A stretch of 32,000 bases of DNA from an uncultured bacterium (lineage in GTDB: Bacteria; Patescibacteriota; Gracilibacteria; UBA1369; PNNO01). Under the pieces are notes generated by a model. It did no database searches and was not told the origin of the DNA. It saw only the letters and a list, made by a program, of their open reading frames with translations. Location: contig OY969931.1 in assembly GCA_963704705.1 (NCBI GenBank), positions 150,001-182,000 on the forward strand. Reading direction: 5' to 3'. Positions 2,867 through 11,083 of the stretch are shown here, one piece after another. Both the position numbers and the translations under genes were made by a program. Numbering within the stretch: position 1 is the stretch's first letter; the number at the start of each line of letters is the position of its first letter.

Positions 2867-3520
2867 ATGCGAGAAAAAAAATTACGTAAAGAGATTTTAC
2901 GAAAACTCTTCCATTTATATCAGCTTCCAATGATACTTGGGTACGTTGTTCTCCGATATTATTTTTCTGAGCGAATAGCGGTTTTTGCAATAGTAATAAT
3001 TTTGGTTATTATTTTGGAATTTGAATTTTTACGATTGGATTTGAATGTAAAGGTCCCGGACCCTTTTGGAATTATGAGACCTCATGAAAAAAAGAGTGTC
3101 AGCGCGATGTTGTTTGTAGCGCTTTCAACAATTGTGGTATTTTCGGTTTTTGATTTTAGAATAGCGATTACTGCAATGCTCATTATGGTTTTTGGGGATT
3201 TGGCTTCAGCATTAATCGGAATTAAATATGGAAAGCACAGGATAAAAAGCGGCAAGTCATGGGAAGGATTTATTGGTGGATTTGTTATGAACCTGATTGT
3301 TGCTTCAATATTTTTATGGGACTTTCCTTTAATTATTCTGGCAATGGCATTGGTTGGAAGTTTTGCGGAATTTCTTACATATAAACTTGATGACAATCTT
3401 ACTGTACCAATCTCGTCAGCTTTTGCCGGTCATATAATGGCTTTCATTTTAGGGGTCAGCTTGGTTCAGCTAACTAATCCTATAACAGATTTATACCAGT
3501 TTCTCACCTCATTTTTTTAG
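2867..3520 (+). CDS. CdsA/dolichol-kinase superfamily membrane protein (CTP-dependent polyprenol/phytol kinase-like)
   Basis: Polytopic 217-aa ORF carrying GDLASALIGIKYGKHRI..GKSWEGFIGGF and a C-terminal KLDDNLTVPI. These match the D..A...G...G / KS.EG / DN...P motifs of the family. Confidence 0.55.
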   Translation: MREKKLRKEILRKLFHLYQLPMILGYVVLRYYFSERIAVFAIVIILVIILEFEFLRLDLNVKVPDPFGIMRPHEKKSVSAMLFVALSTIVVFSVFDFRIAITAMLIMVFGDLASALIGIKYGKHRIKSGKSWEGFIGGFVMNLIVASIFLWDFPLIILAMALVGSFAEFLTYKLDDNLTVPISSAFAGHIMAFILGVSLVQLTNPITDLYQFLTSFF

Positions 3521-3558
3521 CAGAGGCGCGAAGCGACTCTATGGAGCGGAAAAAACAC

Positions 3559-3587
3559 TTGCACGTTTTTAAGAACGCGAGTACTGT
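3559..3587 (+). promoter_or_regulatory. Candidate gdh promoter TTGCAC-17-TACTGT
   Basis: -35-like TTGCAC at 3559..3564, 17-nt spacer, -10-like TACTGT at 3582..3587, 34 nt upstream of ATG 3621. Confidence 0.35.
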
Positions 3588-3620
3588 ATTTTTGCTTTTT
3601 TAGACTTAACCAAACACGAC

Positions 3621-4868
3621 ATGTCTTTGTTTCAGAACACCCTCAAGCAGATCAACGAAGCTGCTGAGATTATGAGCCTTGATAAAGATATTTTAACAAT
3701 CCTTTCCCATCCAAAAAGAATTATTCAGGTTAGCCTTCCTATTAGAATGGATGATGGTACAGTAAAAGTTTTCGAAGGATTCCGCGTACAACATAACGAT
3801 GTAGCCGGCCCTTTTAAAGGCGGCATTCGTTATCATCAACAGGTTGATATGGAAGAGGTTAAAGCTCTTGCAACCTGGATGACAATGAAATGCAGCGTTG
3901 TTGGAATTCCTCTTGGCGGAGCAAAAGGTGGGATCATTGTTGATCCAAAAACACTTTCAAAAAGAGAATTGGAAAAATTAAGCCGAAAATATATTGATAG
4001 AGTTCAGCATAATATTGGACCTCACATGGATGTGCCTGCTCCTGATGTTAATACAAACGGAGAAATAATGGCATGGATGGTAGATGAATATATGAAATTA
4101 GGAAATTTAAATAAAAGAGGCGTGGTAACAGGTAAGCCACTTGAAGTCGGCGGATCTGAAGGCCGCGATGCAGCAACCAGCCAGGGTGGATCTTACGTTT
4201 GGGAAGAAGTTGCAAAAGAAAAAGCAATCAACCCAGGTGAAACAAAAGTTGTAATTCAGGGATTCGGAAATGCAGGATCACACATGGCAAGAATCATGGG
4301 TGAACAAGGTTATAAAATTGTTGGAGTTTCTGATTCAAAAGGTGGTGTATATTGTGAAAACGGGCTAGACGCATCTTCAATGCTTAAATGTAAAATTGAA
4401 AAAGGATCAGTTACTGAATGTGAAACTCAGGCTGATCACTGTACTAAAGTTACAAACGAAGAATTATTGGAACAGGATTGCGACATTTTAGTTTTGGCTG
4501 CGCTTGAAAATCAGGTAACCGAGCAAAATGCTGCAAATATAAAAGCTAAATATATTATCGAGCTTGCAAACGGACCAACTACTCCTGAAGCAGATAAAAT
4601 TCTTGAGAAAAAAGGAGTGCTAGTTATACCTGACATTCTTGCAAACGCTGGAGGTGTAACAGTTAGCTATTTCGAACTTGTTCAGAACGAAGCAGGTTAT
4701 TACTGGACAGCAGATAAAATACAACGTCGCTTAAAACCAATCATGATCAAATCTACTCAGCGTATTAAAGAGATGATGGAAAAATACAACTGTTCAATGC
4801 GTCAGGCAGCGTTTATAAGCGCGATGAGCAGGCTTGAAGCAATGCTTAAGAAAAGAGGGTTCGAGTAA
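3621..4868 (+). CDS. gdhA: Glutamate dehydrogenase (Glu/Leu/Phe/Val dehydrogenase family)
   Basis: 415 aa. Contains FKGGIRYH, MTMKCSVVGIPLGGAKGGI and the Rossmann motif VVIQGFGNAGSH, with typical length and motif order. Confidence 0.9.
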   Translation: MSLFQNTLKQINEAAEIMSLDKDILTILSHPKRIIQVSLPIRMDDGTVKVFEGFRVQHNDVAGPFKGGIRYHQQVDMEEVKALATWMTMKCSVVGIPLGGAKGGIIVDPKTLSKRELEKLSRKYIDRVQHNIGPHMDVPAPDVNTNGEIMAWMVDEYMKLGNLNKRGVVTGKPLEVGGSEGRDAATSQGGSYVWEEVAKEKAINPGETKVVIQGFGNAGSHMARIMGEQGYKIVGVSDSKGGVYCENGLDASSMLKCKIEKGSVTECETQADHCTKVTNEELLEQDCDILVLAALENQVTEQNAANIKAKYIIELANGPTTPEADKILEKKGVLVIPDILANAGGVTVSYFELVQNEAGYYWTADKIQRRLKPIMIKSTQRIKEMMEKYNCSMRQAAFISAMSRLEAMLKKRGFE

Positions 4869-4895
4869 GCTGCCACAGAAACTGCCACAGGCTAT

Positions 4896-5516
4896 TTAAT
4901 TAGCCTTTCGGGCAATCTCTTCATGCATTCGCTTAACTGTAGCTTCAAGTCTTTGAACTATTGGATTGTTGAGTAGCTTTTGAAGTTCCTGTAGCACTTG
5001 TTCATAGTACCAAATCACGTTTTCTCTTCGAGGCTCAGGTGCGTTAAATATTTCCCACATTGATTCGCCTTCCTGTTTATATTTTTCTATGATCGTTTCT
5101 AGATTGTGGATTTTATCAGCAGCACACACCATGAGCGCTGCTTTAGAAGCTGATTTTAGGTGATCAACATACGCCTGTTTGCGTTCTTTCCATACCGCAC
5201 GTTTTTCTTCCTTGGTTTTTTTATGTTCACCGTCCTGATGAGTGACATGATTTACAATATCAGCTATTCTGGTACTAAAATCCTGAGCCATATCTTCATA
5301 ATTGTAACCTTCAACATCTTCCAGCACATCATGTAAAAACCCAGCTGAAATAATATCTTCATCATCAGTATATTCTGCCAAAATTCGTGCAACAGCATCC
5401 GGATGCGTGAAATAAGGTGTTTTGCTCCCTTTTCTAACCTGGTCGGAATGTTTTTCTTTGGCAAAATCGTGCGCTTTTTTTGTTTTTGGTGTTAGTTCCA
5501 TATTTTTATTGTTCAT
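4896..5516 (-). CDS. RSH-type HD-domain (p)ppGpp-like pyrophosphohydrolase, i.e. small alarmone hydrolase (SAH)
   Basis: AHDFAKEKHSDQVRKGSKTPYFTHPDAVARIL...ISAGFLHDVLEDV...IADIVNHVT...LMVCAADKIHNL follows the SpoT/Mesh1 hydrolase motif order H..R..PY..HP..VA / HD..ED / AD+.HN. There is no synthetase, TGS or ACT region. The alternative start Met6 (ATG 5501) lies 4 nt after the upstream stop. Confidence 0.85.
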   Translation of the reverse strand: MNNKNMELTPKTKKAHDFAKEKHSDQVRKGSKTPYFTHPDAVARILAEYTDDEDIISAGFLHDVLEDVEGYNYEDMAQDFSTRIADIVNHVTHQDGEHKKTKEEKRAVWKERKQAYVDHLKSASKAALMVCAADKIHNLETIIEKYKQEGESMWEIFNAPEPRRENVIWYYEQVLQELQKLLNNPIVQRLEATVKRMHEEIARKAN

Positions 5517-5760
5517 TCATAGCATTTACCATTCTTTCGAATTCATCTTTTTCAATTTTTTGACCTTCACTCATAAACAGTTCATCACTAGGATAACCTA
5601 CTTCCCATTCACCATTGTCTTTTAAGCCATATCTGGTCGATCCACGTCCGTCTTCGGTATATACTTCTTTAACAGGAACACCATTTACATTAAAGTAATA
5701 AGTTTGTCCTGCATCTCGTTCGCATTCTTCTTCATACGATAGTGGTTCATTCATTTCCAT
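5506..5760 (-). CDS. Small strongly acidic protein (candidate immunity/antitoxin)
   Basis: 84 aa. Hand count gives 21 D/E versus 8 K/R. It lies 33 nt downstream of the giant gene, and its stop overlaps or abuts the SAH start. I recognise no family. Confidence 0.6.
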   Translation of the reverse strand: MEMNEPLSYEEECERDAGQTYYFNVNGVPVKEVYTEDGRGSTRYGLKDNGEWEVGYPSDELFMSEGQKIEKDEFERMVNAMNEQ

Positions 5761-5793
5761 ATTTGTTAAGTTAAAATTAAATTATATATATAA

Positions 5794-8700
5794 TTATTTC
5801 AATTTTACACGCTTTTTATACATCTCCCAAGCTGCTTCATTTATTTTTTGTTGAGATCGATTTAATTTCTTTTTAAAATAAAATAATTCTTCAGCTTTTG
5901 CCCTTTTTACCGGATTTTTTATTCCAGCAATTTGTTCAGGAGATCTGTCTGGAATAGACCTCCAAAGTTCATAAAATGTATGTGTTTGAAATTCAGTACC
6001 TGTTGGGAGTTTTAATTTTCCTTCTTTACCAATCCTTTTAGCAATTTCAGCAGCAAGCTCATGCTCTCTTTGTGAAAATTTTAATTTCCCTTTTAATGAA
6101 GGGATATTCATCCCTTGTTCTTTAACCTTAAGCATTTCAGAAATATGGAATTGTAATTCAGCTACTCTTCCATCTTTAAATTTAATGCTTATATTCATAT
6201 CTCTATATTGTGCAGGATGTTCGTTAGGTTTAAGTGGATCACCAAAGTTGTCTTTAATAAATATTTTAGCTACTTTAGGGTGCCTTTTAAGTGCCTCAAC
6301 AGCATGTCTAATTTGTGGAAGTGTACCATATTCCAATGATCCTCTAGCTATATCTAATAACTTTGACGCATTACCATTATACTCACCAGGATCTAAAGCT
6401 TTTTCCATTGTTCTTCCTATTTTTTTAACTGGTGCCTGATGATTACCGGTTTGATGACTTCCGTCTCCAATTAAATCTACACCTTCTTCCACAGGTTTAA
6501 CTTTCCCTGCAATATCATTCATTAAAGAGTCGAGCATATCTTTGGTTCCTTTTCGTTTTCCAAGTCTTACAATTTCCATATAATTTTCAAAAGCTTTGAA
6601 ATTAGCTTCATTTATTTTCGGATTAGTATTTGCAATCCCAAGTCTTTTTAATTGTGTTGGATTTTTTCGTATTGCTTGTAATTCTGCATATGAAGCATTT
6701 GCTAATCCAGGAGCTTTGCTTAAAAGCATTTCTTTCCCATGAATTTTAGCTTTTGTAGATTGAGATAATTTTTGTATTTTTACTGCTTCAGCCTGAACTT
6801 TTTGAACATATTTAATGTATGCATCAAACCTTTTTAATGCAGCTGGACTTGATAATCCTATTTTTTTTAACTTACCAGGACTATTTCTAAGTTTTACAAG
6901 TACCTCAATTGGCTTTTGAAGATCAGGCATTTTTGCGAGTGTTTGTTCAACACCGTTAATCCTTTTGGTAAATTGCTCAGCTATTCCATGATTTGTTACA
7001 TTTGGTTGATTAAATTTATCTAAACTAATTACAGCTTTATCTACTAGGTATTCTGCTTGTGTTTTATATATTTGTTTTTCACCCTTATAATTATATGCAA
7101 TAAGGCTTCCATCAGCATTTGTTTTTACAATCTGAAAAGCAGCTTCTTTTATATAATCCGTCATTTTTTCATAATATTGTACTTTTCCTTTTGTATTGTA
7201 AGCTAAAATTCCATGTTTATTTTTGTGCAGTAATGTATATGCAATTTCTTGTCTTTTACTTCGAGGGACTTGGTTTGTTTTATTAAATTCTGTTGCCAAT
7301 GCTTCCATGCTTGGCCTTTTCATAGTTCTTAAATTTATGCCTTGGCTTTCAGCAAGCTTTGCAATACTTCTTGATCCTTCTTTAGGAGCAACCTTTACCA
7401 ATGCTAAAGGCGTACCTACTACACCCGATACGACACTTATAGATAATATACCAAGATCTCTTAAATCTTTTGGAAGTAATTTTCCTAACTTAGGGTGTTC
7501 TTTTTTAAATTTTTCATATTTCCCATTATAATTATTCATAAATACTTGGAATGCATGTTTGATTGAGTTATTTTTTAAATATCCTTTAATTTTATCTTTT
7601 TTGTTTTTTAAAAAGTCTTCTGCATTTTTATATAATTTTGAACCTTCCCTTAAAGCTTGCATTCTTTTTTTAATCAATTCTTTTGAAAATAAAATACTTT
7701 CTACCGGTATTGAATTTATAATTTTTTTTGCTGTTTCTTCGGAAATCCCAAATTTTTTCAATTTGCCAATTAAAGAAGACTGAAGACTTTGTGCATTTTT
7801 AGTTATATGCCCATTTTGTTTAATAGATTCTCTTATTAACACAATGTATCCCGCATAAGCCGGATCTTCTGTTAACTCTTTGATGCCTGCAATTTGCTTA
7901 GCTGACAAACCTGCATATAATTCGATTTTATCAGGAGTAATTTTTTTATCACTCAGCATTTCGTTTAGAAGTTTTGCTTTTCCTCTTGTAATGGGATTTA
8001 CATCGCCTTGCATTTTGGCGATTTCTGCCTTTAATTGTGCTTTTTTTTCCCAATTACCAAATAATTTTCTAAATTTAGCACCCCCGAAGTGATATAGAGG
8101 CATTTGAGCTAAATTATTTATAAATGATGTATTACTAAAATAACTCATGACACCCGCAGATCCAGCCATATGAATAGCATTTGGAAATAAATTTTGAGTT
8201 AATTTTTGAAATTTGGAAAGCTCTGCAGGTGGAATTTTTCTAAACATTCTAGTAAATTTTGCAAGGGGATTTAATGCCATCCCAACAATCTTCATTGATC
8301 CAAGAAAGGTGAATGAATGTTTTACACCTTTAAAAGTAAATCTTTTCATCATTTCATTTAAACCTCCACCCTGGTCAGCAACCTGTAGTCCTGTCATCAA
8401 TGCTTCAAATGCCGGAGCCTCTACTGCCAAGCCCGCAGTTTCTGCAACTAATTTTGTAGTTAGATTTCTTATCAATCCCTGTTCTGCAAAACTTGCCAAC
8501 CTGCTAGTAACAAACGTTGTTGCCCCTCTTCCTAAAAAACCGGCTAAGCCGCCTGAAGCAACTATAAATAAAGCCTGCTTCAAACCATCATCATTTTTAG
8601 GCAGACGTAATTCCCCGGGTATATACTCCCCGTTTTCGTTGGTTATTGATTTAATTAAATCTTTAATTTCTTTTGCTTTTCCTTTTGTATACAAAACCTG

Positions 8701-10758
8701 CTTTACTTTTTTCATCATCAAAGCGTTCACGGAGTTATAATTTTTCATAAAACCTTTTTTCTCATCTAGTGTGCCTCTCATGATATCCAGCCAATCAGAA
8801 TTTTTATGCCATTTTCTTAACATTTTAGTTGTTTCACCTCGTTTTACTCCCGATAAAAATGCTTGTGAAGCATGTGTCCAATAATTTGGCACGGATGCAT
8901 TAATAAAATTATCTCCTCTTTGTATTTGTTTAGTTGTTGCATTTCTGCCGCGTAGCAATTTAAGTGCTTCATCCTCAAATAAATCTTTTCTTTTTTTATC
9001 ATTTTCAACTTCGGTTAATGTAACAATTCTTCTTACTAAATTATCGAAATTAAAATTATTTTTACTTCCCATATCTGCATCAACTTCTTGACCTAAATCA
9101 AGCTTATCAAATGCATCATGTAAAGAATTGGCTTTTCCTTTATTAATTAAATTTCTTAATTTATTAATTATTTTATAAGCGCCGAAATTTTTTCTTTTCT
9201 CAGGTTTCATCGGAACATTATTTATAACATTTTCCGCCATATTTAATATGCCTATTGAAGCCTTTTTTAAGCCTTCATTGCATTTTTCTTTTAATTCCAA
9301 ATATCCTTTATCCATCTGAACTTTGGCCCTTACATTTTTAAGTGGACTTCTTTTAATTTCGTCAGATTTTCTTGAAGAACTGTTTTGTAAATAATGACCA
9401 CCTTCGGAAAAACCCGCCTGATTTAGATATTTTTTAAAATGCGCATAGGCATTTATATAATCCTGGTTTTGCAAATCAACTTCTGCTCTGTAGTAATCTT
9501 TTTTAATAGGATCTTCTTTTGGATCTTCAATTTGTTTTTCAAATTTAAGCCTTTTAAAAATTTCCATATGATTATTTAATAATCCATTCAGAATACTGAT
9601 TTTCTGCATACCTTTTCCTTTTTTAAATAAAATGGTTGGAAAAAATTTATCTTTTGGATTATTTGGATTTTCTTTAAAGAAAAGACCGTACTGAGTATAA
9701 TTTTCTTCTATTGCAGCTTTCATTAATGGTCTATCTTCTTCTGGTAATAAATCCAATTGAGGATTTTTATAAAAGGTTTTTACTTGCACTAGCATTTTTG
9801 CGACCTGAACATCTAATATTTCTTCATTAAGCGAGTCAGGATATTTTTTTTCTTTTGAAACATTTTCATAATTATTGAATTCATCTATCACTAGATTAGA
9901 TTCAACTGATTTTTGTATTTCTCTGGCTTTATAATTTTTATTTTCAATCTCTTTTAATAAATCCATCCAATTTACTTTATTCTTTCCCTTTTTTAAAACA
10001 AGTTTGAAATTGGTAAATGAAGTTGGAGGCTCGTCCGGGATATCAGGGTTAATTTGTACAGGAACATCGCTTTTATCACCTGTTGTAGCCATCGAATATA
10101 TATGATCATCTTTATACTTATTTTCCATTTCATCAAATACAACTTTAAATTCAGATAACTTAACATTTCCGTTGCTATCAACACCGGTTACATAATTTGG
10201 ACCTTTAAGCCCGTGTATTACAGTTCCTGACTTGAAAAACATATTGAATTTTCCTTCAAGCAAAGATACTTCCAAAATGTCTTCCTTGATTTTTAAAGCG
10301 AGATCAGGGTGGAGCTTATCGATATTATTCTTTTTAGAAAAATTTTCGTAAAGTTTTTTAGCTTTTCCAAATTTTCTTTCCTTGACCAGTTTTTGTGTTT
10401 CCACTTCTTTTTTAAGCAACTCAACTTCAAAATATTCTTTTTGCTTTATTAGTAATTTTTCATACAATTTACCTGTTCTTTCATTTAATGAAGCATTTAA
10501 TTTTTCGCCCTCTTTGGCACTTACTTTTTTGTCCTTTAAAATTTCATTCATCAAATCCTGCGTGCCCCCCAGATATTGATCCATATCTGTTTCCCACCCT
10601 GGATAATTATTTTTTTTAATAAATTCTGTGGCCAGCTTTTGATATTTTGAAAGCATTTGTTTTGTTTCTTTGTATTTTTCCCATTTGGGAAAATTTTCAC
10701 CTAATTTATCTAATGCTGCTTTATCAACTACTTTTTTTGCATTTTCAAATACTTTCAT
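5794..10758 (-). CDS. Giant 1,654-aa protein with a C-terminal RelA/SpoT-like (toxSAS-like) nucleotidyl/pyrophosphotransferase domain
   Basis: An uninterrupted 4.96-kb ORF in AT-rich DNA. No N-terminal signal peptide (MKVFENAKKVVDKAALDK). Central Gly/Ala-rich hydrophobic block at aa ~727-895. Internal repeats at aa ~1183-1247 and ~1287-1400. RSH core motifs occupy the last ~190 aa. Confidence refers to a real CDS; I would put the functional call at about 0.55. Confidence 0.9.
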   Translation of the reverse strand: MKVFENAKKVVDKAALDKLGENFPKWEKYKETKQMLSKYQKLATEFIKKNNYPGWETDMDQYLGGTQDLMNEILKDKKVSAKEGEKLNASLNERTGKLYEKLLIKQKEYFEVELLKKEVETQKLVKERKFGKAKKLYENFSKKNNIDKLHPDLALKIKEDILEVSLLEGKFNMFFKSGTVIHGLKGPNYVTGVDSNGNVKLSEFKVVFDEMENKYKDDHIYSMATTGDKSDVPVQINPDIPDEPPTSFTNFKLVLKKGKNKVNWMDLLKEIENKNYKAREIQKSVESNLVIDEFNNYENVSKEKKYPDSLNEEILDVQVAKMLVQVKTFYKNPQLDLLPEEDRPLMKAAIEENYTQYGLFFKENPNNPKDKFFPTILFKKGKGMQKISILNGLLNNHMEIFKRLKFEKQIEDPKEDPIKKDYYRAEVDLQNQDYINAYAHFKKYLNQAGFSEGGHYLQNSSSRKSDEIKRSPLKNVRAKVQMDKGYLELKEKCNEGLKKASIGILNMAENVINNVPMKPEKRKNFGAYKIINKLRNLINKGKANSLHDAFDKLDLGQEVDADMGSKNNFNFDNLVRRIVTLTEVENDKKRKDLFEDEALKLLRGRNATTKQIQRGDNFINASVPNYWTHASQAFLSGVKRGETTKMLRKWHKNSDWLDIMRGTLDEKKGFMKNYNSVNALMMKKVKQVLYTKGKAKEIKDLIKSITNENGEYIPGELRLPKNDDGLKQALFIVASGGLAGFLGRGATTFVTSRLASFAEQGLIRNLTTKLVAETAGLAVEAPAFEALMTGLQVADQGGGLNEMMKRFTFKGVKHSFTFLGSMKIVGMALNPLAKFTRMFRKIPPAELSKFQKLTQNLFPNAIHMAGSAGVMSYFSNTSFINNLAQMPLYHFGGAKFRKLFGNWEKKAQLKAEIAKMQGDVNPITRGKAKLLNEMLSDKKITPDKIELYAGLSAKQIAGIKELTEDPAYAGYIVLIRESIKQNGHITKNAQSLQSSLIGKLKKFGISEETAKKIINSIPVESILFSKELIKKRMQALREGSKLYKNAEDFLKNKKDKIKGYLKNNSIKHAFQVFMNNYNGKYEKFKKEHPKLGKLLPKDLRDLGILSISVVSGVVGTPLALVKVAPKEGSRSIAKLAESQGINLRTMKRPSMEALATEFNKTNQVPRSKRQEIAYTLLHKNKHGILAYNTKGKVQYYEKMTDYIKEAAFQIVKTNADGSLIAYNYKGEKQIYKTQAEYLVDKAVISLDKFNQPNVTNHGIAEQFTKRINGVEQTLAKMPDLQKPIEVLVKLRNSPGKLKKIGLSSPAALKRFDAYIKYVQKVQAEAVKIQKLSQSTKAKIHGKEMLLSKAPGLANASYAELQAIRKNPTQLKRLGIANTNPKINEANFKAFENYMEIVRLGKRKGTKDMLDSLMNDIAGKVKPVEEGVDLIGDGSHQTGNHQAPVKKIGRTMEKALDPGEYNGNASKLLDIARGSLEYGTLPQIRHAVEALKRHPKVAKIFIKDNFGDPLKPNEHPAQYRDMNISIKFKDGRVAELQFHISEMLKVKEQGMNIPSLKGKLKFSQREHELAAEIAKRIGKEGKLKLPTGTEFQTHTFYELWRSIPDRSPEQIAGIKNPVKRAKAEELFYFKKKLNRSQQKINEAAWEMYKKRVKLK
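5959..6429 (-). other. RSH synthetase-like domain within the giant CDS (aa ~1444-1600)
   Basis: Ordered motifs: LLDIARGSLEY (Asp1469, nt 6352..6354); IKDNFGDPLKPNEHPAQYRDMNISI (nt 6193..6255), compared with the canonical KDYIA.PK.NGY.S.H; GRVAELQFHISEM (Glu1534, nt 6157..6159), compared with the canonical EIQIRT..M. Confidence 0.55.
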
Positions 10759-11083
10759 TATTTTTTATTTTTGATATAAATTTTTTACTATAACTTTTAA
10801 ATTTTTTTTGAAACTTATCAGTTAAATTATGCTTTGCCATAATTACAATTTTTTTATCATTTTCTTTTTGAATTATGTCTTTAAAATATTCATAAGTCTT
10901 CTTAATAAGAGAATTATTCGCGTTCTCAATAAATAATTTCCATTCATTTTTTTCATTTTCAGAAAGGAAATCAACGTAATTAATAAGCTGGATTAATTTT
11001 TGTTTTGTGATTTTTGTTTTCGGCATAATCTGAGCATAATATATCGTAATATTATACATCAAAAATCGTTTAAAATAAAGCAA
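10745..11083 (-). CDS. Small K/N-rich hypothetical protein at the head of the giant-gene module; true start probably ATG 11026 (93 aa)
   Basis: The track ORF begins at a TTG (11083..11081). An in-frame ATG at 11026 (MPKTKITKQKL...) lies downstream of a TATAAT at 11056..11051 (minus strand). The stop TGA 10745..10747 overlaps the giant gene's ATG (10758..10756) by 14 nt. Confidence 0.5.
   Translation of the reverse strand: MLYFKRFLMYNITIYYAQIMPKTKITKQKLIQLINYVDFLSENEKNEWKLFIENANNSLIKKTYEYFKDIIQKENDKKIVIMAKHNLTDKFQKKFKSYSKKFISKIKNNESI

Follow-up and report, generated by a model that had tools for sequence, protein, structure and literature searches.

A candidate Tas1-like toxin-immunity module with two putative immunity genes, a small acidic protein and an alarmone hydrolase, in a Patescibacteria-type bacterium

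The window, a 32,000-nt stretch of contig OY969931.1 from an uncultured Patescibacteria-type bacterium, contains a large gene for a protein of 1654 amino acids (aa), a small open reading frame (ORF) of 84 aa (p84), and a gene for a small alarmone hydrolase (SAH). All genes of this locus lie on the (-) strand (Table 1). The locus is, with good probability, a toxin-immunity module of the Apk/Tas1 kind that possesses two immunity genes, namely p84, which would block the toxin, and the SAH, which would hydrolyze its product. p84 is predicted to be the cognate binding immunity protein of the toxin domain that ends the 1654-aa protein, and the SAH is predicted to act as enzymatic immunity by degrading the pyrophosphorylated product of the toxin.

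The preliminary description of this locus had placed the 84-aa ORF directly after a putative toxin domain, counted 16 Glu and 5 Asp versus 4 Lys and 4 Arg in it, called the adjacent toxin-like C-terminus Lys-rich, located the p84 stop codon either inside the SAH frame or 4 nt before its start, and proposed two antidotes of different kinds. These observations were borne out. The gap between the 1654-aa ORF and p84 is 33 nt; the composition of p84 is exactly E16 D5 K4 R4 (net charge -13, pI 4.16); aa 1440-1654 of the large protein contain K31 and R13 vs. D7 and E19 (net +18, pI 9.9); and the p84 stop lies within the SAH frame that opens at ATG 5516, or 4 nt before ATG 5501. The assignments of the SAH and of the toxin domain are likewise upheld by the matches described below, and, within the reach of sequence analysis, comparative genomics supports the two-antidote reading.

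Table 1. Coordinates of the module and its signals in the window, and of related features in loci of other genomes (L-numbers).
Feature	Positions	Strand	Remarks
p112	10745..11083	-	Small ORF, 112 aa from a TTG start; from the ORF list
Polymorphic-toxin-like protein	5794..10758	-	1654 aa; uninterrupted ORF
Hydrophobic Gly/Ala-rich region	8257..8589	-	aa 724-834 of the 1654-aa protein; hydropathy scan
C-terminal toxSYNTH domain	5797..6534	-	~aa 1409-1654 of the 1654-aa protein; putative Tas1/Apk-type RelA-SpoT-homolog synthetase
TTAACTTAAC	5765..5774	-	5-14 nt upstream of the p84 start; matches the -15 TTAA[CT] element
p84	5506..5760	-	84 aa; ATG start, TAA stop at 5508..5506
p84/SAH junction	5499..5516	-	...AAT GAA CAA TAA AAAT ATG GAA...
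SAH, HD domain	4896..5501 or 4896..5516	-	201 or 206 aa, depending on the start
p112 homolog in L007	2839..3147		
p112 homolog in L003	1929..2258		
SAH in L003	1337..1804	-	Aph1-like: 7SMG, E 2e-35
SAH in L007	9343..9954	+	Rel/Mesh1-like: 6S2V, E 9e-16

The toxin domain and its two candidate antidotes

The toxin domain was not detected by Pfam (no RelA_SpoT match) or by NCBIfam. A single-sequence phmmer search of the PDB gave Tas1 (6OX6_A, E 4.9e-4) as its sole match, and a profile of nine members of the toxin family matched Tas1 with an E-value of 1.5e-9, followed by SAS1/YwaC (0.007) and RelA (0.28). Foldseek of a poor structural model of the domain (pLDDT 60) also ranked Tas1 first (E 4e-3, prob 0.94), and then Rel and SAS enzymes. 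Residues R70, K74, D90, R93, G94, R140, E155, Q157, H159, and Y217 (fragment numbering) are invariant in the nine family members and align with the motifs of Tas1; they are read as the Syn1-5 motifs (R-x-x-x-K, D-x-x-R-G, Y-R, E-x-Q, and H-x-x-Y). These matches support the assignment of the C-terminal domain as a Tas1/Apk-like synthetase of the RelA-SpoT-homolog type with intact catalytic motifs.

A word-index homology search with the domain found no match, even missing the parent protein, and one with the toxin alignment found two proteins only. Scans of genomes and metagenomes with the toxin alignment yielded few further Patescibacteria-type loci and mostly paralogs from Photobacterium without p84 or SAH. 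In Photobacterium spp. (L017-L026 and L029-L031; ~4500..7500 of each locus), two Apk-like ORFs of ~270-300 aa each are arranged in tandem, with no p84 or SAH homolog nearby. A guess is that they represent the Sec-exported Vibrio/Shewanella EAS cluster, in which Sec-exported enzymes including VpEAS fall (PMC12691689). In Bordetella phage vB_BbrM_PHB04 (MF663786.1, 36205..36507), a hypothetical protein also aligns to the toxin-domain core, with 31% identity over 108 aa (E 1e-4).

The 1654-aa protein as a whole is Lys-rich (net charge +98). By visual inspection it lacks a signal peptide; Pfam, NCBIfam, PADLOC, and PHROG gave no family for it, no delivery domain was recognizable, and its aa 1-1100 had no sequence match in the PDB. 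Fusion to PAAR/Rhs, MuF, LXG, XopAD, DUF4157, or a Sec signal was not found, the N-terminal part of ~1400 aa being matchless. Within the moderately hydrophobic Gly/Ala-rich region, Kyte-Doolittle windows of 19 residues exceeded 1.0 at aa 724-751, 770-795, and 815-834, and a second, moderately hydrophobic Gly/Ala-rich stretch occurs at aa 1098-1128. The region of aa 724-834 is a candidate for a membrane-inserting or translocation segment, as judged from its hydropathy.

An exhaustive phmmer search with p84 retrieved nine small homologs of 82-103 aa (E 5e-23 to 9e-4), which are 36-58% identical over the matched stretches. AlphaFold2 predicted an alpha-beta4-alpha-beta-alpha topology from ten sequences with high confidence (pLDDT 90.9, pTM 0.74). 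A chance ORF is ruled out by this conservation and confident fold. Searches of Pfam, NCBIfam, PADLOC, and PHROGs gave only sub-threshold matches to choline/glucan-binding repeats that were confined to the beta-hairpin, and these are regarded as a resemblance in beta-hairpin composition. The possibility of a cell-wall-binding repeat protein was rejected, as p84 is one short, acidic, cytoplasmic domain that is always tied to a toxin domain. A word-index search with p84 returned only itself, and the phage collection contained no match. The best viral neighbors of the p84 model in the BFVD were two unnamed small phage proteins, A0A977KMG2 (73 aa, TM 0.56/0.63) and A0A516KX65 (92 aa, TM 0.63/0.58).

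The SAH matched Pfam HD_4 (1.6e-20) and HD (1.8e-5), as well as the hydrolase part of TIGR00691 spoT_relA (1.4e-24). Its best matches in the PDB were the SAH dimers 7QOC (2.3e-31) and 7QOE (4.5e-28), which are presumably RelH-type enzymes of Corynebacterium and Leptospira, and Aph1 (7SMG) was matched at 3.8e-4. The His/Asp motifs THP, LHDVLED, and ADKIHN are present, and these stretches align to 7QOC. By these matches the window SAH is a RelH-like single-domain HD hydrolase, a type that can act on guanine alarmones. It does not belong to the Aph1 family, whose members carry the signature D24, R96, D116, R119, K133, and Y134 and are closest to 7SMG; by reading of the sequence, the Q-I-D-K of Aph1 (signature from PMC10083569) corresponds to Q-V-R-K in the window SAH.

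Conservation of the module and the relation of p84 to Tis1

The contigs of every p84 homolog were compared with the window proteins. The 84-aa ORF is conserved in relatives, and every homolog whose upstream sequence could be read follows a toxin-domain homolog. This arrangement, with the p84 homolog directly 3' of the toxin domain, was observed in all eight other lineages in which the upstream side could be read (L001, L002, L003-5, L006, L007-9/16/28, L010, L012-14/27, and L015). The partner toxin domains match the final ~300 aa of the 1654-aa protein at 28-59% identity, and the p84 family has net charges of -5 to -14 vs. +5 to +39 in the toxin domains. Between lineages, the large proteins differ in their N-terminal parts; the alignable part comprises ~200 pre-toxin residues and the toxin domain.

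An SAH gene is adjacent in five of the six lineages with a readable downstream side. It lies on the same strand as p84 in the window (RelH-like, +4 nt from p84), L001 (76% identical to the window SAH, +9 nt), L002 (62% identical, +7 nt), the L007 group (-4 nt, i.e., a 4-nt overlap), and L012-14 (+16 nt), and on the opposite strand in convergent orientation in L003-5. L015 contains the toxin-p84 pair and no SAH in the DNA at hand. L002 is syntenic with the window, and the outer flanks differ, with phosphoenolpyruvate carboxykinase (PEPCK) in L001 and glutamate dehydrogenase (GDH) in L002 and the window. Three SAH subtypes adjoin the toxin-p84 pair, namely RelH-like in the window, Aph1-like in L003, and Rel/Mesh1-like in L007. 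The presence of three unrelated subtypes in the same position argues for repeated recruitment of the SAH. The pair of toxin domain and p84 is the invariant core of the module, because its adjacency is strict across lineages while SAH type and presence vary; the alarmone hydrolase is a frequent, exchangeable addition. The three recruited subtypes are good evidence that there is selection for product hydrolysis as such and that the hydrolases can replace one another, whereas the binder remains with its toxin domain.

The L007 locus (3151..9954; also L008, L009, L016, and L028, all metagenome-assembled genomes of Patescibacteria) encodes a 1294-aa protein with its own toxin domain, followed by an insertion sequence (IS) with a DDE_Tnp_1 transposase. 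Past the IS are a second toxin-domain ORF of 229 aa, a p84 homolog, and an SAH. The 1294-aa protein runs ~85 aa beyond its toxin domain into a second pre-toxin-like stretch. This layout suggests either tandem toxin modules disrupted by an IS or an orphan toxin-immunity cassette.

The relation of p84 to known immunity proteins was examined with a set of Tis1-like sequences, which are small ORFs beside phage Apk toxins that were reached from a Tas1 fragment. A 79-aa ORF of the human-gut phage MT835636.1 matches Tis1 (6OX6_B, 77 aa) with an E-value of 0.013, and other phage loci supplied four more small ORFs in the same position. In hhalign comparisons, the p84 family scored 13.7 against one Tis1-like sequence (P 0.066, 13 columns), 19.2 against four (P 0.0051, 54 columns), and 22.8 against six (P 9.7e-4, probability 22%, 56 collinear columns), i.e., the match strengthens as the diversity of the target grows. 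Column shuffles of the Tis1-like alignment scored 9.8 +/- 2.0 with a maximum of 18.1, and none of 300 reached 22.8. Two anchor motifs are common to both families, [AS]G-x-x-[VY]-Y in the first strand and G-x-x-I-[ST]-[KR]-x-E-[FY] close to the C-terminus. A hidden Markov model (HMM) of the Tis1-like set placed members of the p84 family at ranks 1, 2, 3, 6, 7, and 10 among 619 ORFs of Patescibacteria-type loci, and the reverse search with the p84-family HMM placed Tis1-like ORFs at ranks 1, 2, 6, and 9 among 317 ORFs. Remote homology of p84 to Tis1/IapK-like immunity proteins appears, on balance, probable but unproven.

The phage loci themselves show related arrangements. In MT835636.1 (L032, 3935..5343), an Apk of 204 aa is followed by the 79-aa ORF and by an overlapping Aph1-like SAH of 157 aa; the toxin is free-standing and not fused to MuF, and the public record is unannotated. 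Approximately 75 near-identical IMG/VR contigs (L033-L107) from gut phages of 50-220 kb share this Apk/Tis1-like/Aph1-like arrangement. In L108 (1805..3309), a 419-aa phage protein with a C-terminal Apk domain and a non-MuF N-terminal part is followed by a Tis1-like ORF of 72 aa, after which no hydrolase was found.

Proposed mechanism, alternative explanations, and known systems

As the module is proposed to work, the toxin domain would be a RelA-SpoT-type pyrophosphokinase that uses ATP as the pyrophosphate donor and, most likely, the 3' position of adenine nucleotides as the acceptor; it would thereby make (p)ppApp and drain ATP in the cell where it is active. p84 would bind the basic toxin domain one-to-one and block its active site, probably by occluding the acceptor-nucleotide site as Tis1/IapK do, and the producer would be protected. 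The SAH, translated by re-initiation 4 nt past the p84 stop, would hydrolyze the product that escapes inhibition by p84 and regenerate ATP/ADP. In this scheme we infer that p84 binds and inhibits the toxin, what the product is, that translation is coupled, and that the large N-terminal region serves to deliver the toxin to another cell. By analogy, (p)ppApp is the most likely product, because an Aph1-type enzyme partners the L003 ortholog and because (pp)pApp synthetases are neutralized by Tis1-like domains. All of the 12 Aph1 homologs tested hydrolyze ppApp (PMC10083569). Tis1-like domains neutralize (pp)pApp synthetases at the acceptor site, and pZFD domains neutralize tRNA-modifying toxic small alarmone synthetases (toxSAS) at the donor site (PMC11782079).

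Several observations weigh against this reading of the locus. Foldseek of the p84 model against the PDB found nothing significant, and Tis1 (6OX6_B) was not among the 50 matches listed; sequence searches of the PDB with p84 and its family profile retrieved neither Tis1 nor another plausible relative; and the hhalign probability for the Tis1-like match is only the 22% given above. The AlphaFold2 model of the toxin domain, which was built from three sequences, was poor, and the nearest relatives of this domain found outside Patescibacteria are the Photobacterium proteins. With regard to the product, some Apk1 homologs make only (p)ppGpp (PMC12691689), and the window SAH has Arg at the Aph1 specificity residue D24 and is RelH-like, not a dedicated (p)ppApp hydrolase. 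Finally, library and PDB searches linked no known secretion or delivery domain or apparatus to the module.

The last point would fit an intracellular toxin-antitoxin (TA) or abortive-infection system like FaRel and CapRel instead of a toxin exported against other bacteria or a host. In such a system the long N-terminal part would have a sensing or regulatory function, and p84 and the SAH would serve as antitoxins that are released when a phage attacks. toxSAS TA systems with SAH and protein antitoxins exist, the window locus is chromosomal and lies amid housekeeping genes, and neither a signal peptide nor marker domains of a secretion system nor secretion genes nearby were seen. However, in L007 a second toxin-domain ORF with its own immunity genes lies behind an IS element, and such a set resembles the orphan cassettes of polymorphic toxin loci. 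Furthermore, a very large protein that ends in a toxin domain is the signature of polymorphic toxins (PMC12226406); relatives have different N-terminal parts but a conserved pre-toxin and toxin region, and no PADLOC defense family was matched. A TA system is unlikely on these grounds.

It is still less probable that p84 is a chaperone, adaptor, or stabilizer for the solubility or export of the basic toxin domain, with self-protection left to the SAH alone. Eag/Lap proteins serve effectors of type VI and type VII secretion systems (T6SS and T7SS) in this way, but known effector chaperones bind N-terminal or transmembrane regions, and p84 tracks the catalytic domain. Such chaperones are usually encoded upstream, where p112 would be the better candidate. 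Adjacency and charge complementarity show partnership and not inhibition, p84 has no significant structural match to Tis1, and full-length Tas1-like effectors need chaperones (PMC10083569), all of which is compatible with a chaperone. On the other hand, p84 also accompanies the 229-aa toxin-only ORF in L007, it must suffice as antidote in L015, where no SAH is present in the DNA at hand, and its profile resembles those of Tis1-like immunity proteins.

A similarly low probability is given to the SAH as a housekeeping alarmone hydrolase that merely neighbors a toxin-immunity pair, with p84 as the sole antidote. Against it, five of the six readable lineages have an SAH right beside the toxin-p84 pair, and the outer flanks differ; the three unrelated subtypes in this position argue for repeated recruitment, and the short distances to p84 (-4 to +16 nt) point to co-translation of the two. 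In support of a housekeeping role, the RelH-like type is known as a general (p)ppGpp hydrolase, CgSAH being listed among the (p)ppGpp hydrolases (PMC10083569), most Aph1 homologs are not located beside toxins (PMC10083569), and L015 shows no SAH in the DNA at hand. A role of p84 as partner or regulator of the SAH (inhibitor, activator, or dimerization partner) instead of the toxin is very improbable and was rejected, because p84 homologs occur without SAH at one locus, the SAHs that accompany them elsewhere belong to three unrelated subtypes (one SAH is encoded on the opposite strand), and a toxin-domain homolog lies upstream of p84 in every case, although translational coupling would fix the p84:SAH stoichiometry.

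The proposed toxin-immunity module with a blocking p84 and a hydrolyzing SAH resembles most closely the MuF-Apk2/BcTis1-IapK/Aph1 systems of temperate phages, which also consist of a C-terminal Apk domain in a large protein, a binder of ~75-90 aa, and a tightly coupled HD hydrolase. In these systems, the Apk2 toxin gene precedes that of a Tis1-like binder, and the Aph1 gene comes third; the protection is cumulative (PMC10083569, PMC12226406). The hydrolases are interchangeable, and the binders are cognate-specific (PMC10083569, PMC12226406). A Tis1 homolog is always present at MuF-Apk2 loci and the SAH is sometimes absent (PMC10083569); here, too, the binder is constant and the hydrolase is sometimes missing. 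All of these genomic traits recur at the present locus. Among close relatives, the hydrolase is more conserved than the binder in both cases (76%/62% vs. 58%/51% here; 43-57% vs. 35-38% in PMC12226406). The two-antidote reading of the preliminary description is therefore not new in kind, because the order of toxin, binder, and hydrolase was shown experimentally for MuF-Apk2 (PMC10083569). Unlike the MuF-Apk2 systems, the N-terminal region here is matchless and not MuF, the host is the chromosome of a small-genome Patescibacteria-type bacterium, the toxin domain is distant (profile match to Tas1 at E 1.5e-9), the relation of p84 to Tis1 lies at the limit of detection, and the window hydrolase is RelH-like and not Aph1-like.

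The T6SS pair Tas1/Apk1-Tis1 of P. aeruginosa (6OX6) provides the best and only solved relative of the toxin domain, and it also has a small immunity gene (Tis1, 77 aa) directly downstream. p84 and Tis1 share the strand-1 and C-terminal anchor motifs, whereas structural similarity between them could not be demonstrated with Foldseek. No PAAR or T6SS context occurs at the window locus, and the tas1-tis1 arrangement, unlike that of the window, lacks an adjacent hydrolase (PMC10083569).

A tricistronic toxSAS operon with both kinds of antitoxin, which the preliminary description had mentioned, is that of C. marina FaRel, which is composed of the SAH gene aTfaRel, faRel, and aT2faRel (PMC7229694, PMC11782079). 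FaRel and, on the proposed reading, the window toxin are (pp)pApp synthetases opposed by two agents, an SAH that degrades the product (type IV-like) and a protein antitoxin; the Tis1-like domain of AT2faRel occludes the acceptor site. FaRel is a free-standing small toxin that is flanked by its antitoxins, with the SAH upstream, whereas the window toxin ends a 1654-aa protein and both antidotes are downstream. In addition, AT2faRel has an extra pZFD domain that is absent from the single 84-aa domain of p84, and the FaRel SAH belongs to the PbcSpo subfamily. With its order of toxin, binder, and SAH, the window locus is not a FaRel-type tricistronic operon; it would work like the FaRel system, but it is no member of it. 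Bxa-Bsi-BAH, a system of a MuF ADP-ribosyltransferase (PMC11699363), likewise combines a stoichiometric blocker with an enzyme that reverses the chemistry of the toxin, although its ADP-ribosylation chemistry and its proteins are unrelated.

The combination of a binder with hydrolysis of the product has already been established for MuF-Apk2 and FaRel, and the concept is unchanged by the window locus. The extensions are the small-genome Patescibacteria-type lineage, the very large carrier without a known delivery domain, and a divergent immunity family, p84, that is not recognized by standard annotation, Pfam, or Foldseek. Patescibacteria have been described as epibionts that live on other bacteria. 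A tentative and rather doubtful extrapolation is that Patescibacteria-type cells carry unrecognized giant membrane-interacting effectors, which would deliver an ATP-draining alarmone-synthetase domain into hosts or competitors through a novel N-terminal translocation region and without a secretion signal, with protection by a divergent Tis1-like branch and exchangeable hydrolases. If true, this would be the first alarmone-based effector in Patescibacteria-type bacteria and a handle on the manipulation or killing of hosts. No paper in the library that was searched connected Patescibacteria with such toxins, and a survey of ~1,400 Apk1 homologs makes no mention of them. Three leads stand out as the most valuable: the N-terminal region, which may be a new delivery device of epibiotic bacteria, the unannotated p84 immunity family, and the repeated recruitment of different hydrolases. 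The alignments of the p84 family (A1) and the toxin-domain family (A2) can be used as profiles to flag such loci in metagenomes.

Translation signals and surroundings of the module

The SAH has two possible starts, ATG 5501, which begins 4 nt past the p84 stop, and the in-frame ATG 5516, which results in an 11-nt overlap with the p84 ORF. The SAH orthologs of L001 and L002 align from residue 6 (M6) of the 206-aa reading, and ATG 5501 is the conserved start because these orthologs begin at the equivalent of M6. None of the 21 window genes is preceded by a Shine-Dalgarno (SD) sequence. A TTAA[CT] element that starts 14-16 nt upstream of the start codon was found in eight of the 21 genes, including p84, against a background of 7.5% per 19-nt window in the survey of upstream regions. 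Other carriers are recA (upstream of 21058), nusA (22587), GDH (3621), and PEPCK (12653). The element may act in initiation without an SD sequence, or it may correspond to a promoter -10 element that gives short leaders. TTAACTTAAC, which carries it ahead of p84, might allow the immunity genes to be initiated independently. No TTAA[CT] element precedes the large toxin gene or the SAH in this survey. Coupled translation of p84 and SAH is plausible because the SAH has neither an SD sequence nor this element in an SD-less genome, and its translation is probably coupled to p84 by termination-reinitiation. A scan for promoters and terminators gave no signal above the expectation from shuffled sequence.

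Four (-)-strand ORFs, p112, the 1654-aa ORF, p84, and the SAH, are closely packed in the window, and the module is flanked by PEPCK on one side and by a convergent GDH on the other. The window has a G+C content of 35% and contains the housekeeping genes recA, nusA, pilB, pyruvate phosphate dikinase, and NAD kinase; no phage genes were seen in it near the module, and the locus is chromosomal. The G+C content of the large toxin gene is 27-35% per kb vs. 35-44% in the neighboring housekeeping genes, which may reflect its Lys-rich composition or a foreign origin. All three core proteins (the 1654-aa protein, p84, and the SAH) are singletons at 90% identity and are encoded on a single contig of 1.37 Mb.

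p112 overlaps the start of the 1654-aa gene by 14 nt and is possibly the first gene of the operon. Its ATG at 11026 (~93 aa) is a more likely start than the TTG. It had no family match in Pfam, PADLOC, or PHROG, and a role as an accessory protein or chaperone is a matter of speculation. Homologs (blastp E 5.6e-7, phmmer 8e-10) occur directly 5' of the 1294-aa toxin protein in L007 and as the first gene of another unit in L003. The p112 family comprises small helical proteins whose genes overlap, and lie directly upstream of, large toxin genes in several lineages.

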